DNA of 64,000 nucleotides from an uncultured Roseivirga sp. Lineage in GTDB: Bacteria > Bacteroidota > Bacteroidia > Cytophagales > Cyclobacteriaceae. This document shows positions 55,630 to 59,852 of the stretch, piece by piece. Within the stretch, counting starts at the first letter, position 1. Each line of letters opens with the position of its first letter. The stretch lies in the NCBI GenBank assembly GCA_943846625.1, contig OX044362.1, positions 1,596,030 to 1,660,029 on the forward strand, read 5' to 3'. The position numbers were made by a program, and so were the translations under genes. The notes under the pieces are model-generated. The model was not told the origin of the DNA. It searched no databases and saw only the letters and a list, made by a program, of their open reading frames with translations.

Positions 55630-56427
55630 CAACTCCTTTACCACTTTAGCAGCTACCATTCCGGTTACACCATTGATATCACGGTCAGGGTTATATTCAA
55701 CCACATCGCAGCCAACTATTTTTGCATCTAGTTTCTGTATCATGTTGATTGCTTCTCGCGTAGTCAGTCCGCCCGGTTCGTGATGCGACACACCAGGTGC
55801 AAAGGCCGGATCAAGGACATCCATATCAAAGGTAATATAGACTGGGCCATCGAATTTCATATTAATCTCTGAAGACCAGTCTTTCATCTCGATGACATTT
55901 ACACCAAAGCGATCCGCTTGTTCTTTCTGATGAGATGTCATGGTGCGAATTCCAATTTGTGTCAAGTGTTTCGCCAAGCCATTCTCCATGATGCGCGCAA
56001 AAGGGCAGGCATGTGAATGCTTATTGCCGTCTAGTTCGTCATAGAGGTCGCCATGTGCATCAAACTGAATGATGTGGAGGTTAGGGTACTTCTCAGCCAA
56101 AGCCTGCATGATAGGGTAGGCCATAGAGTGATCGCCACCTAAAGAAAACGGGAGGGCATCCTGCGCAAGTATCTCTCTAATGGGCGATCCAATGTCAAAG
56201 TAATCTTTCGGGGATGCATTGCCGCACCATTTGACGCGTGGATGTTCATTAAGGTCAGTCAGGTTCTCGGTAAAGAAATTAGCAGAGTCAGACTCCAGTG
56301 ATTCAATAATCAATTCTGGAGCCTTCGCTGGTCCTTGTAGAAAGGAAGAATTTTCGTCAAAAGGAATCCCAATCAGGGCGATGTCATTTGCGGCTAGCGT
56401 GTCAATTGTACTCCTTTTGATGCCCAT
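55612..56427 (-). CDS. speB: Agmatinase (ureohydrolase family)
   Basis: GGDHS, FDAHGD, HACPF, FDMDVLDPAFAPG, EYNP. Confidence 0.85.
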   Translation of the reverse strand: MGIKRSTIDTLAANDIALIGIPFDENSSFLQGPAKAPELIIESLESDSANFFTENLTDLNEHPRVKWCGNASPKDYFDIGSPIREILAQDALPFSLGGDHSMAYPIMQALAEKYPNLHIIQFDAHGDLYDELDGNKHSHACPFARIMENGLAKHLTQIGIRTMTSHQKEQADRFGVNVIEMKDWSSEINMKFDGPVYITFDMDVLDPAFAPGVSHHEPGGLTTREAINMIQKLDAKIVGCDVVEYNPDRDINGVTGMVAAKVVKELLAKLL

Positions 56428-58094
56428 TACTTCTGCCAGTTATCTCTAAGCGTTACCGTCCTGTTGAAAATCAAGTTTCCTTCTGTCGACTCTTTGTCTA
56501 CTATAAAGTAGCCTTGTCTTTCGAACTGGAAGAAATCACCCGGCTTAGCTTCTGCCAATGATGGCTCAAGTAAAACACCTTTATTGATCTCCAATGAATT
56601 CGGATTCAAGTGATTCGTCAACTCGTCATCAATCGTGCTGAGGTTTTCAGTAGTAAAGAGTCTGTCATACATTCGGATATCGGCTTTCACTGCATGGTCT
56701 GCAGAAACCCAACCCAATGTGCCTTTTACTTTCTTTCCGCTTGTGTCATGTCCACTGCGTGTATCTGGATCGTACTCGCAATACAGTTCAGTGATGTTAC
56801 CATCTGCATCCTTTTCAAAGCCAGTGCACTTCACAATGTATCCGTACTTCAAACGTACTTCACGATCTGGCCCTAAACGGTACCATTTCTTCGGAGGAGG
56901 AGGATTCTCTAAAAAGTCGCCTTGCTCTATATAAATTTCTCTCGTCAAAGGCATTTCACGACTTCCTGCTGCTTCGTCACCTGGGTTATTCACTGCAGGC
57001 ATCATTTCTGTTTTATCGGCAGGCCAGTTGGTAATCGTCACTTTCAGTGGATCAAGAATACCGAAAACGCGATTGGCTTTCTTATTCAAGTCCTCGCGGA
57101 TACTATGCTCAAGTAATGCAATGTCTGTAATGCCATCTCTTCTGGCTACGCCTACTTTGTGCGCAAAATTCTTAATCGATTCTGGCGTATAGCCTCTTCT
57201 TCTAAAACCAGAGATGGTAGGCATACGCGGATCGTCCCAGCCATTTACATGACCGTCTTCTACCAATTGTAAAAGCTTACGCTTACTGACAATGGTATAG
57301 CCCAAGTTTAAACGAGCAAACTCAGTCTGTTTTGAAGGAAAAATGTCGAGTGCATTGATCATCCAATCATACAAAGGCTTGTGGTCTCTAAATTCGAGTG
57401 TACACAAGCTATAGGTAACATTTTCTATAGAGTCTGACTGTCCGTGGGCAAAGTCATAATTAGGATAGATGCACCATTTGTCACCCGTTCTATGGTGATC
57501 GACTTTTTTGATTCTGTAGATAATCGGATCTCTCATGTGCATATTAGGAGAGTCCATGTCAATTTTCACCCTCAGTACACGGCTACCTTCTTCGCAAGCA
57601 CCACTGCGCATGGCTTCGAAGCGGGTTAGATTTTCCTCAACTGAAAGGTCTCTATAAGGACTTTTAATCCCTGGGATGGTGGGATTGGTCTTGCCTGCGC
57701 TAATTTCTTCAGCACTTTGGTCATCGACATACGCTTTCCCGTCTTCGATTAACTTGATGGCATAAGTGTATAGTTGATCGAAATAGTCAGAGGTGAAGAG
57801 GGGTTTGTCGCCATAGTCATAGCCTAGCCATTTGATGTCCTCGATAATCGCGTTCACGTACTCCATACTTTCCTTTGCAGGATTAGTGTCGTCAAAACGC
57901 AGATTGCACTTGCCATTATATTTTTCGGCTAACTCAAAGTTCAGCACAATGGATTTAGCGTGACCGATATGCAAGTAACCGTTGGGTTCTGGTGGGAAGC
58001 GTGTCTGGACAAAAGAGTTTTTACCTGATTTGAGGTCTTCTTCTATCATTCGCTCAATAAAGTTGAGCGATTCTTTGTTTTCGTTTCCCACCAT
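56427..58094 (-). CDS. glnS: Glutamine--tRNA ligase
   Basis: TRFPPEPNGYLHIGH, RFDDTNP, SLCTLEF, VSKRKL, FQFERQGYF. Confidence 0.97.
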   Translation of the reverse strand: MVGNENKESLNFIERMIEEDLKSGKNSFVQTRFPPEPNGYLHIGHAKSIVLNFELAEKYNGKCNLRFDDTNPAKESMEYVNAIIEDIKWLGYDYGDKPLFTSDYFDQLYTYAIKLIEDGKAYVDDQSAEEISAGKTNPTIPGIKSPYRDLSVEENLTRFEAMRSGACEEGSRVLRVKIDMDSPNMHMRDPIIYRIKKVDHHRTGDKWCIYPNYDFAHGQSDSIENVTYSLCTLEFRDHKPLYDWMINALDIFPSKQTEFARLNLGYTIVSKRKLLQLVEDGHVNGWDDPRMPTISGFRRRGYTPESIKNFAHKVGVARRDGITDIALLEHSIREDLNKKANRVFGILDPLKVTITNWPADKTEMMPAVNNPGDEAAGSREMPLTREIYIEQGDFLENPPPPKKWYRLGPDREVRLKYGYIVKCTGFEKDADGNITELYCEYDPDTRSGHDTSGKKVKGTLGWVSADHAVKADIRMYDRLFTTENLSTIDDELTNHLNPNSLEINKGVLLEPSLAEAKPGDFFQFERQGYFIVDKESTEGNLIFNRTVTLRDNWQK

Positions 58095-58241
58095 TTTCTG
58101 TCTAACTGAATAGAGTGCAATTTTAGTGAAAACCGTTGAATTCAGCTTGTTAAATAGCGTTTATTTCAGTCAATGAAAATTGACAATCACAAAGAATCAT
58201 GGAAGTAGTAGTGGACTCTTTTAGAGTGGGTTAGGTATGAT

Positions 58242-58309
58242 TGTGTATAAACCTGTGGATAACCCAGTGGATAAGTATGTGAATAACTAAGTGGGAAACT
58301 TGTTGAAAA
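58242..58309. promoter_or_regulatory. Array of co-oriented DnaA boxes at 12-bp period
   Basis: TGTGTATAA 58242, TGTGGATAA 58254, AGTGGATAA 58266, TGTGAATAA 58278, then degenerate AGTGGGAAA 58290 and TGTTGAAAA 58301 (consensus TGTGNATAA). Confidence 0.85.
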
Positions 58310-58325
58310 CTAGAGGGTTACAATG

Positions 58326-58356
58326 TTTGCATCTAAAGATATGTAAAGTATCTTAG
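58326..58356 (+). promoter_or_regulatory. Bacteroidota housekeeping promoter for the candidate large ncRNA
   Basis: TTTG (58326-29)-N19-TATCTTAG (58349-56); the spacing matches the TTTG-N19-21-TAnnTTTG consensus. Confidence 0.7.
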
Positions 58357-58361
58357 GTATA

Positions 58362-59074
58362 CCAAGTGAGGGATAAAGAACAGAAGTCTAGCTTCAGTCT
58401 CTCTTCGGGAGAAGCCCGAAAAAGTGTAGTGAAAGGGTTGACATGTAAATGTTAATCTGAGACAGTCAGAGTGATACTGTTAGTATTTATCCAGATCGTA
58501 AGTGACGGATTGAATATCGGAAATTTCTTCAGGGAAATTGCCAGGTGTATGTGATCACTACTTTGAAAGGGAGTAATCATAAGACGTTCTAAAAATCTTT
58601 CTATGAAAGGTGATTAGGCATCATTTTAACAGTTGACTTTAATGAAAACTGAGCAATCAGGAATAGTTCTAGTCAGGAAAGTACTTCGGTACACACCTCA
58701 TCACCGTCAACGATTACTGGAAACAGTGATTGACACGCGCTCGCAAGAGCATGTGGAACATGTGGAGATTACTTTCGGGTAGTTTTGACAAAGAACGTTG
58801 ACAGATCTGCAGAGATATATAAGACTGCAAAAGCTTCGCATAACCGATTGGTGCTGAGCACCAAACTATAGGTGAAGCCGTAAGAAGACAGCGTTTAGAC
58901 TTGATTGCTTGGGCCTTCAAGTTTGAACAAAGTTCTGAACAGTAACTTGGCATCTTTAAATAGTTCATACTATTTAAAGATGAGCAGGGGGTGAGCAATC
59001 ACCCCCTGTCTTTGTTATTTGGGGGTATTTGAAAAAATACTGAAAAAGACCACTGGGGAGTGGTCTTTTTTTTT
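58362..59074 (+). ncRNA. Candidate large (~710 nt) highly structured non-coding RNA, class not recognised
   Basis: Promoter before and terminator after; about 10 UUCG/GNRA-capped hairpins; nested long-range helices 58362-67/58945-50, 58377-81/58932-36, 58384-90/58896-902, 58391-96/58873-78. Confidence 0.8.
59043..59074 (+). terminator. Intrinsic terminator closing the candidate ncRNA
   Basis: AAAAAGACCACT-gggg-AGTGGTCTTTTT-TTTT. Confidence 0.9.
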
Positions 59075-59122
59075 GCTCACTTCTAAACTTTTTTTTAAAA
59101 TATCCGTTGTCTTACTAGTTTT

Positions 59123-59143
59123 AATAATAGTAATGCTATTATT
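59123..59143. promoter_or_regulatory. Probable TetR operator
   Basis: AATAATAG-taatg-CTATTATT perfect 8-bp inverted repeat about 30 nt upstream of the tetR start. Confidence 0.55.
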
Positions 59144-59174
59144 TAGAATAGTTAATTATCACACTTCACTAGAC

Positions 59175-59852
59175 ATGGCGCTACTTAGGCTTGAAATGAA
59201 TGCTAAACTTTTTTTGCGTGATCCGCAGGAAACAGATTTAGGAAGAAAGATTATTGATCAATCCATTCGGATGATTGATGAGTTTGGGTTGGAGGCCTTC
59301 ACCTTTAAGAAACTGTCCATTGCTATAGATTCTACAGAAGCATCTATCTATCGCTACTTTGAAAATAAACATAAGTTGCTAGTCTATCTTATCGCTTGGT
59401 ATTGGAACTGGTTGGAGTATAGAATTGACTTCGAAACACATAACGTAAAATCCCCAGAAGATAGGCTAGCCATTGCATTGAGGTTAATTACCGAGCAAAA
59501 GTCTTATGACCTATCTTTCCCTTCGGTTGATGAGTCTGCTTTGCAAAGAATTATCACCAATGAATCAGATAAGACTTATCTTACAAAACAAGTGGATAGC
59601 GATAATCGAGAAGGTCTTTTTAGGGGTTTTAAAACTATCTGTAAGCGCATTGCTGATATGATCAAGGAAATCAATCCATCTTACCAATATGCGCATGCCT
59701 TGGTAAGCACTGCATTGCAATCTGCCCATCAGCAAGTGTTTTTTGCAGAGCACTTACCTTCTTTGACTGAGCATGATCCTGGGCGAGGGGATATCTATCA
59801 GCAGAATTACGTGTTTCTTTTAGAACTCATTCAAAAAGCTATTAGGGAATAA
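59175..59852 (+). CDS. TetR/AcrR family transcriptional regulator
   Basis: RDPQETDLGRKII, FTFKKLS...TEASIYRYFENKHKLL; the ORF-track start at 59019 crosses the terminator, so 59175 is preferred. Confidence 0.92.
   Translation: MALLRLEMNAKLFLRDPQETDLGRKIIDQSIRMIDEFGLEAFTFKKLSIAIDSTEASIYRYFENKHKLLVYLIAWYWNWLEYRIDFETHNVKSPEDRLAIALRLITEQKSYDLSFPSVDESALQRIITNESDKTYLTKQVDSDNREGLFRGFKTICKRIADMIKEINPSYQYAHALVSTALQSAHQQVFFAEHLPSLTEHDPGRGDIYQQNYVFLLELIQKAIRE

Follow-up and report, generated by a model that had tools for sequence, protein, structure and literature searches.

A candidate structured non-coding RNA gene behind an array of DnaA-box-like sequences in Roseivirga and related Cytophagales

The locus and its features

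The DNA examined here is a stretch of 64,000 nucleotides (nt) from an uncultured Roseivirga sp. (assembly GCA_943846625.1, contig OX044362.1, positions 1,596,030 to 1,660,029 of the forward strand). We call this whole stretch the window; positions refer to it, except those in kb or Mb, which refer to the genome. The window contains a gap between the gene of glutaminyl-tRNA synthetase (GlnRS; glnS, 56427-58094, - strand) and a TetR-family gene (tetR, 59175-59852), and ABC transporter genes come after tetR. An earlier reading of the letters (the original prediction) had placed a large RNA rich in tetraloop hairpins in this gap, at 58362-59074. Our findings showed that the structure of this RNA evolves under constraint at the RNA level, that is, under purifying selection on the fold. 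Taking the evidence as a whole, we think that the locus is very probably best explained as a stand-alone, stably folded non-coding RNA gene belonging to a family that has no catalogue entry. The predicted gene and its parts are as follows.

58359 to 59074, + strand: maximal extent of the RNA gene (fold z = -10, invariant G-U pairs, single copy, no conserved open reading frame [ORF])
58326 to 58356, + strand: promoter, with a -33 element TTTG (58326-29), a 19-nt spacer and a -7-type element TATCTTAG (58349-56)
58362 to 58367, + strand: 5' strand CCAAGU of helix P1, pairing with ACUUGG at 58945-50
58368 to 58376, + strand: 5' junction GAGGGAUAA (family consensus GAGRGAUAW), invariant in Roseivirga and conserved across genera
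58377 to 58381, + strand: 5' strand AGAAC of helix P1b, pairing with GUUCU at 58932-36
58383 to 58395, + strand: P2 hairpin GAAGU-CUA-GCUUC, with 0 of 50 cells broken and with compensatory changes
58404 to 58458, + strand: two 5'-domain hairpins, UUCGGG/CCCGAA (58404-20) and GGGUUGACAU/AUGUUAAUCU with a GUAA loop (58435-58), both compensatory
58463 to 58827, + strand: variable central domain, closed by CAGUC/GACUG (58463-67/58823-27)
58833 to 58928, + strand: 3'-domain hairpins 58833-78 (inner stem 58846-66, three compensatory pairs) and 58893-928 (five compensatory pairs)
58932 to 58950, + strand: P1b 3' strand GUUCU (58932-36), 3' junction GAACAGUA (58937-44, consensus AACWGUA) and P1 3' strand ACUUGG (58945-50)
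58951 to 58982, + strand: post-P1 hairpin of 14 base pairs (bp), all 14 compensatory across Roseivirga
58985 to 59021, + strand: terminator 1, a covarying 10-bp G+C-rich stem with a GCAA loop (58985-59008), then CUUUGUUAUUU
59022 to 59074, + strand: Roseivirga-specific tail, an invariant GGGGGUAUUUGAAAAAAUAC (hairpin 59025-40), then terminator 2

The 5' end of the RNA is predicted to within about 3 nt (start at ~58359-62), and the 3' end would be either terminator 1 (~59021) or terminator 2 (59074).

All the sequence features listed by the original prediction were found in place. Its statement that the interval has no long ORF also held: in the glnS-tetR gap, no + strand ORF exceeds 49 amino acids (aa), the - strand has one of 94 aa, and the short ORFs of the RNA region are disrupted by stops or frameshifts in close relatives, leaving no conserved ORF. 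The RNA gene is present as a single copy in this 3.04-Mb genome. A possible second copy at 1.416-1.417 Mb, picked up by motif matches, is coding sequence.

The same short ORFs, together with the several copies found in some genomes, might suggest that the transcript is a messenger RNA for a protein or small peptide, or the RNA of a mobile element (omega-RNA, retron msr or an intron remnant). However, the ORFs are interrupted in close relatives, as described above. IscB/TnpB, a reverse transcriptase or a transposase are absent as neighbours, and synteny is stable inside clades. Plasmid and phage collections gave no match to the RNA, nor did the Rfam families of the HEARO, group II intron and retron types. 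We therefore regard a messenger or mobile-element RNA as hardly credible.

Folding and covariation of the RNA

The + strand of 58362-59074 has a folding energy of -240 kcal/mol, compared to -177 +/- 6 for its dinucleotide shuffles (z = -10), and the - strand of the same interval folds more weakly, at -190. In order to follow the structure in evolution, we used an oriented alignment of 20 Roseivirga species (alignment A2), on which we counted a core model of 68 pairs. The model consists of P1, P1b, P2, the two 5' hairpins, one 3'-domain hairpin, the post-P1 hairpin, both terminators and an AU hairpin. In the 20 species, 97.2% of the cells were paired, compared to 85.8% in shuffles and 39-48% when the partners were slid. 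In addition, 39 of the 68 pairs had changed on both sides (compensatory changes), and none of 500 shuffles equalled the observed values. Invariant G-U pairs, for example at columns 140/166, become C-A on the opposite strand, and therefore the + strand is the functional one. The claim of a structured + strand RNA thus agrees with the z value, with the weaker fold of the - strand and with the strong compensatory variation. Covariation, which the original prediction had named as a check, is strong in the Roseivirga core model, in P1 over the whole family and in a minimal form of 230 nt.

The alignment also showed high conservation of the promoter and of ~110 nt at the start and ~200 nt at the end of the RNA, a rebuilt middle, and a total length that ranges from ~525 to 745 nt.

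The conserved core

The members of the family have in common P1, the 5' junction GAGRGAUAW, the small P2 hairpin, and the 3' junction AACWGUA directly 5' of the P1 3' strand. They also share a hairpin, and then a G+C-rich terminator with UUUUGUU after it. The hairpin is homologous to 58951-82, was found in every genus and in many cases has the loop UACG or CACG. The perfect 13-bp stem that had been proposed at 58951-82 is supported as a hairpin of 14 bp with compensatory changes.

The original prediction had joined the two ends of the RNA by four long-range helices. The outermost, CCAAGT/ACTTGG, is our P1, and it holds throughout the family. Across 60 non-identical sequences from many genera, P1 was 96% canonical and five of its six pairs were compensatory, a result reached by 0 of 500 shuffles. 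Its variants include CCAAG/CUUGG, UCAAGC/GCUUGA, CUAAAC/GUUUAG, CUGAAC/GUUCAG and CCAAAU/AUUUGG. The two P1 strands lie ~155 nt apart in a family of Cytophagales with small genomes; in other genera the distance is ~220 or ~535 nt, and in Roseivirga it is 383-597 nt. On the close relatives, RNAalifold favoured AUUUGG (59017-22) as the partner of CCAAGU. Since no other genus has the tail that bears AUUUGG, we took ACUUGG as the partner of P1.

The second helix, AGAAC/GTTCT, which we call P1b, was likewise upheld by compensatory changes in three of its five pairs within Roseivirga; it is 98% paired, with the variants AGAUC/GAUCU, AGAGC/GCUCU and AAGUC/GGCUU. P1b is homologous in Roseivirga and in the small-genome family and covaries in both, and it is not evident in the 220-nt type. 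The other two long-range helices failed. AAGTCTA/TAGACTT was non-canonical in 13 of 70 cells and GCTTCA/TGAAGC in 6 of 60, and both are outcompeted by the local P2 hairpin (58383-95) and by the 3' hairpins 58833-78 and 58893-928. In the minimal 230-nt form, the helices P1, P1b, P2, P4 and P6 all covary.

GAGGGAU of the 5' junction (58368-76) might pair with GUCUCUC (58397-58403), a pairing that would cross P1b as a pseudoknot. One observation points, weakly, to this candidate: from genus to genus, GAGNG and CNCUC can still pair, through A-U, G-U or C-G.

The interior domains

The structure of the interior rests on ten close relatives, for which a constrained RNAalifold model gave ~28 helices, most of them with 2-7 compensatory pairs. 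In the central domain, these are 58471-82/58627-704, 58545-87 (GAAA), 58588-618, 58635-74 (GCAA), 58675-98 (UUCG), 58706-12/58796-802, 58713-30 (GAAA), 58731-58 (GCAA) and 58761-90 (UUCG). Other species have a shorter domain, or a different one in its place, and the total length of their RNA is 525-745 nt.

Most of the tetraloop hairpins that had been proposed could be followed in the alignments. Compensatory changes were found in 58435-58 (GUAA), 58649-60 (GCAA), 58681-92 (UUCG), 58734-55 (GCAA), 58766-85 (UUCG) and 58985-59008 (GCAA), and the hairpins 58545-87 (GAAA) and 59025-40 are present and invariant. In the case of the hairpin proposed at 58706-34, the inner part (58713-30, GAAA) is compensatory, but the outer GTCA/TGAC is displaced by GUCAACG/CGUUGAC (58706-12/58796-802), which has five compensatory pairs. 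The first "UUCG loop", at 58403-08, is actually one strand of the helix UUCGGG/CCCGAA (58404-09/58415-20), where G-C changes to A-U in four species. As for the two inner junctions, GGTGT/ACACC was broken in 14 of 50 cells, and TGACT/AGTCA kept its GAC/GUC core but lost the rest of the helix.

In a relative of 610 nt from another genus (locus L069, ~2060-1700, - strand), the module CUGARACGG-N4-ACCGCAGAAG occurs as three internal repeats. Motifs akin to it, GAAAC/GCAGAA, are seen in other genera and, as UCUGAGACAG, in the RNA of the window (58456-65). The repeated module may be a tertiary or binding module. A hammerhead-like CUGANGA core at 58456-65 was rejected, as the consensus is not matched and Rfam is negative.

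Promoter and terminators

The promoter of the original prediction, TTTG-N19-TATCTTAG, is present where it had been placed, and the alignment showed both of its elements to be conserved across Roseivirga. Other genera have related TAYYTTAG or nnnTTTGAT elements at the equivalent position. The elements at 58326-56 resemble what we take to be the sigma-A consensus of Bacteroidota, TTTG / TAnnTTTG.

A terminator scan detected a hairpin at 58984-59009 followed by CTTTGTTATT. In all other genera, the RNA ends at a stem equivalent to terminator 1 plus UUUUGUUUUU, and the Roseivirga RNA continues with an additional invariant tail (UUAUUUGGGGGUAUUUGAAAAAAUAC) and terminator 2. The stem of terminator 2 (59046-67, within 59043-70) and its U-run (59066-74) are conserved, and six of the stem pairs are compensatory. 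The terminator with nine U residues that had been claimed is thus both conserved and covarying across the Roseivirga alignment. The segment between the two terminators, 59010-59040 (CUUUGUUAUUUGGGGGUAUUUGAAAAAAUAC), is invariant in the 20 Roseivirga species and absent from all other genera. Alternative pairings can be drawn for it: its AUUUGG could bind the 5' CCAAGU, and its GGGGG the CCCCC stretch in terminator 1.

Two hairpins around 58985-59040 that can pair in alternative ways, and the presence of tetR and an ABC transporter downstream of the RNA in several Roseivirga species, would suit a cis-acting leader or attenuator of these transporter genes. Against such a riboswitch or leader, two strong intrinsic terminators stand in tandem before tetR, and then ~100 nt of separate DNA lie upstream of tetR. 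Moreover, the downstream genes vary by clade, and other genera have unrelated genes or a second copy of the RNA in that place. A leader function therefore seems to us extremely improbable.

Comparison with known RNAs

When the whole window was searched with the 4227 families of Rfam 15 by cmscan, none reached the gathering score. At E <= 10 on 58050-59250, only low-scoring, sub-threshold matches riding on the terminator hairpins appeared, and the OLE, ROOL, GOLLD, raiA and HEARO models were absent from them. The loci of shorter relatives from other genera gave nothing in Rfam at E <= 0.1. The Rfam scan, which had been proposed as a check, thus yielded no family match that would remove the novelty of the RNA. 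The statement that the RNA lacks the hallmarks of transfer-messenger RNA (tmRNA) and RNase P RNA was also correct, as both are located elsewhere in the genome: the CR-I and CR-V motifs of RNase P RNA sit at 1.3408-1.3411 Mb, and ARAGORN places the tmRNA gene at 1.0670-1.0673 Mb.

The 6S RNA models RF00013 and 6S-Flavo RF01685 match nothing in this complete genome. The 6S RNA of Roseivirga is either too divergent for these models or missing. This vacancy, and a conserved internal loop next to the closing stem, raise the idea that our RNA does the work of 6S RNA or Ms1, binding RNA polymerase, in a strongly diverged form. All three are stand-alone stable RNAs with paired termini and a conserved internal loop. 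6S RNA is known as a ligand of the RNA polymerase holoenzyme and as the template of pRNA. However, 6S RNA is a rod of ~180-200 nt with a large central bubble, whereas the RNA of the window is multi-branched and its family varies threefold in length (230-745 nt). P1 is just 6 bp long, some genomes have two or three copies, and not even a partial match of a 6S model was seen on the RNA. We thus give this analogy very little weight.

The RNA has more in common with OLE, ROOL and GOLLD, and also with raiA. The shared characteristics are a length of hundreds of nt, many GNRA or UNCG tetraloop hairpins, a multi-domain fold with long-range closing helices, strong covariation, variable peripheral domains, and the lack of a known biochemical function at the time of discovery. 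In contrast to OLE, ROOL and GOLLD, the RNA of the window matches none of their Rfam models, belongs to a different phylum, has a narrow range (two Cytophagales families), varies threefold in length around a small conserved core, and comes from a syntenic chromosomal gene with no link to phages or mobile elements. To our knowledge, no DnaA-box array ahead of the promoter has been reported for OLE, ROOL or GOLLD.

Distribution and copy number

BLAST against relatives detected one copy in each of 24 Roseivirga genomes and none in 16 other families of the order Cytophagales. A first covariance model, made from the 5' domain (R1), found Roseivirga only; its single outside match (genome G190) was inside a gene. 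In 16 genomes from other Roseivirgaceae genera, a 3'-domain model (R2) found the 610-nt relative described above. BLAST with this relative then detected all five genomes of its genus, as well as three copies of ~290 nt in another genus.

We also built a broader covariance model of the 3' module from a further alignment (model R3, alignment A6) and ran it over 400 Cytophagales genomes. It gave matches in eight Roseivirgaceae genera, with one to three copies each. A second Cytophagales family, whose genomes are 1.2-1.8 Mb in size, was sampled with 18 genomes, and all 18 were matched. In this small-genome family, 13 of the 18 genomes carry two copies, some of them in tandem. A phylum-wide sample of ~385 further Bacteroidota genomes gave no match. 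A more sensitive run on 13 negative Roseivirgaceae genomes recovered one divergent, weak member and so added a ninth genus. This member has the box array described below, a P1 of CUAAG/CUUAG, a UACG hairpin and a terminator, and it is without GAGAGAUAAA. Because the sensitive run recovered such a member, we consider that the family diverges fast and that its detected range is a lower bound; the E-values of these purpose-built models are rough.

Remote relatives of 230-680 nt are thus present in at least nine Roseivirgaceae genera and in the second family. The detected range of the family is Roseivirgaceae and one small-genome family of Cytophagales, and it is not phylum-wide. The original prediction, which had counted a search for homologues among its checks, had proposed an undescribed class of large structured non-coding RNA in Bacteroidota. 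The absence of an Rfam match, the homologues in two Cytophagales families and the covariation speak for this proposal, but a phylum-wide range and half of the long-range helices do not stand. Nor is a size of ~710 nt a property of the class, since its members range from ~230 to ~745 nt.

In the genus with the ~290-nt copies, the three are dispersed (L094 485-760 and 5768-6060; L095 700-400, - strand). The small-genome family often has two copies of ~235 nt, either 0.35-0.45 kb apart or with one gene between them (L127 1617-1860 and 3075-3310; L128 893-1130 and 1330-1570). In one species of this family (L121), a shortened 3'-half copy with a degenerate end is located directly upstream of an intact copy at 1366, which suggests a tandem duplication followed by decay. 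In the comparison of the family loci, we found no protein-coding neighbour conserved between clades.

The DnaA-box-like array upstream of the promoter

Upstream of the promoter lies a regular array of 9-mers that resemble DnaA boxes.

58242 to 58309, + strand: six DnaA-box-like 9-mers in one orientation, phased at 12/12/12/12/11 nt
58242 to 58274, + strand: boxes 1-3, TGTGTATAA (58242-50), TGTGGATAA (58254-62) and AGTGGATAA (58266-74)
58278 to 58309, + strand: boxes 4-6, TGTGAATAA (58278-86) and the weaker AGTGGGAAA (58290-98) and TGTTGAAAA (58301-09)

Four of the boxes have at most one mismatch, and the two proximal sites are weaker. The array is conserved in all 18 aligned Roseivirga loci, including those where the upstream gene is not glnS, and it moves with the RNA when the neighbouring genes change. 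We examined 78 distinct copies of the family from all clades, and 70 of them had at least one box (<= 1 mismatch) at -130 to -55. In total, 156 boxes were in the forward and 3 in the reverse orientation, none fell within -50 to -1, and 0.02 per 150 nt would be expected by chance. The repeats of the small-genome family have the sequence TGTTGAWAA and an 11-nt phase.

The array is the densest DnaA-box cluster in the 3.04-Mb genome, and the second densest is at 458.6 kb. The cumulative GC skew is lowest at 0.47 Mb and highest (terminus) at 2.04 Mb, and the RNA locus is at 1.654 Mb. The locus was therefore rejected as oriC, since the GC skew puts the origin at 0.46-0.47 Mb. The position of the skew minimum makes the 458.6-kb site the likely oriC instead: the intergenic DNA at ~458,560-458,960, ~11 kb from the minimum, is AT-rich and has DnaA boxes scattered over it in either orientation. 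The dnaA gene is at 920.6-922.0 kb, ~460 kb from the likely oriC.

DnaA-box clusters outside oriC and DnaA-regulated promoters are well known, for example E. coli datA, DARS1/2 and the dnaA and nrdAB promoters, and the clusters of Bacillus subtilis. The present array has the composition that defines such a cluster (at least three consensus-like, phased boxes away from the origin). It resembles the known clusters in having consensus-like 9-mers off oriC, in one orientation and phased by about one helical turn, and the order of strong distal and weaker proximal sites is that of arrays on which ATP-DnaA oligomers are loaded. In contrast to datA, DARS and the DnaA-regulated promoters, this array stays, in many genera, with a structured-RNA promoter instead of belonging to a protein gene or being a stand-alone titration site.

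From these features one could argue that the locus is mainly a DNA element, a site that titrates or reactivates DnaA as datA, DARS and the Bacillus clusters do, and that transcription would only modulate the occupancy by DnaA, the RNA having no function of its own. The rigid phasing and the conservation of the boxes, and their density at a place away from oriC, are in favour of this idea. However, more than 39 pairs with compensatory changes, and the retention of the closing helix in two families, reveal selection on the fold. As regards the array, a DNA element and a functional RNA do not exclude each other. That the locus is mainly a DNA element is, in our judgement, very improbable.

We return to the interpretation of the locus as a gene for a structured RNA. 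The RNA would be transcribed on the + strand from the Bacteroidota-type promoter at 58326-56, with a start predicted from the sequence at ~58359-62, and the transcript would end, after the conserved hairpin, at the tandem intrinsic terminators (~59021, 59074). P1 and P1b would close the molecule on either side of a conserved internal loop, GAGRGAUA opposite AACWGUA, and the interior would be variable and rich in tetraloops. We lean slightly towards the view that DnaA determines how fast the RNA is transcribed, probably in the form of an ATP-DnaA oligomer that assembles cooperatively, nucleating on the strong distal boxes and spreading to the weaker proximal ones. Since no box is located inside -50 to +1, activation seems likelier than occlusion; the gradient from strong distal to weak proximal boxes, the helical phasing and the box-free core promoter would all fit a cooperative loading of ATP-DnaA that activates. 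The core formed by P1, the loop and P1b might be a binding platform for a protein or another partner. The variable domains might be structural ballast or assembly surfaces and make up a compact particle, as the comparison suggests with OLE, ROOL and GOLLD, for which a cryo-electron microscopy report describes homo-oligomeric RNA-only complexes (PMC12286853). We speculate that the RNA reports, or feeds back on, the state of replication initiation or growth.

Several points weigh against this interpretation. We infer the expression, the ends and the abundance of the RNA from the promoter, the terminators and the covariation. The GAGRG/CUCUC pairing and a tertiary role of the tetraloops are as yet candidates. 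Several Roseivirgaceae genera gave no match in the more sensitive run, and no conserved protein-coding neighbour indicates a function. In addition, the TGTTGAWAA of the small-genome family is one step from the DnaA consensus, so that another protein could be its reader, and the binding of DnaA is itself a prediction.

The RNA may go further and be the output of a DnaA-sensing switch, in which an ATP-DnaA filament would induce an RNA or particle that acts back on initiation or couples the cell cycle to housekeeping. It would then be the Bacteroidota member of a recurrent, fast-diverging class of RNAs fronted by DnaA boxes. We consider this extended proposal rather unlikely.

Large structured bacterial RNAs supported by covariation are rare, and RNase P, OLE, ROOL, GOLLD and HEARO/omega-RNA each led to unexpected biochemistry. 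The natural size variants of ~230-745 nt around one small core are suited to structure determination and to a search for partners. Streamlined genomes of 1.2-1.8 Mb keep one or two copies of the RNA, which argues for an important cellular role. The coupling to an oriented, phased array outside oriC directly suggests the hypothesis that the replication initiator controls a structured RNA. The literature that we searched contained no precedent for a DnaA-controlled structured RNA and no relevant Roseivirga transcriptome. Cultured type strains of Roseivirga exist, for example R. spongicola, R. ehrenbergii, R. seohaensis, R. pacifica, R. echinicomitans and R. thermotolerans.

Finally, we considered tandem boxes at a 12-nt phase as a marker of RNA genes elsewhere in Bacteroidota. 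This use was rejected: the 30 loci obtained are either oriC-like or located in or upstream of protein genes such as dnaB. Because tandem boxes elsewhere mark origins or protein genes, the link between the array and the RNA appears to be specific to this RNA family within the phylum, as sampled. At one locus of another Roseivirgaceae genus (L147, genome G112), two boxes at a 12-nt phase are followed by GGGAAAC, ~160 nt upstream of an ORF similar to DnaB helicase. This site looks like an ordinary DnaA-regulated promoter of a protein-coding gene with a similar grammar of boxes.

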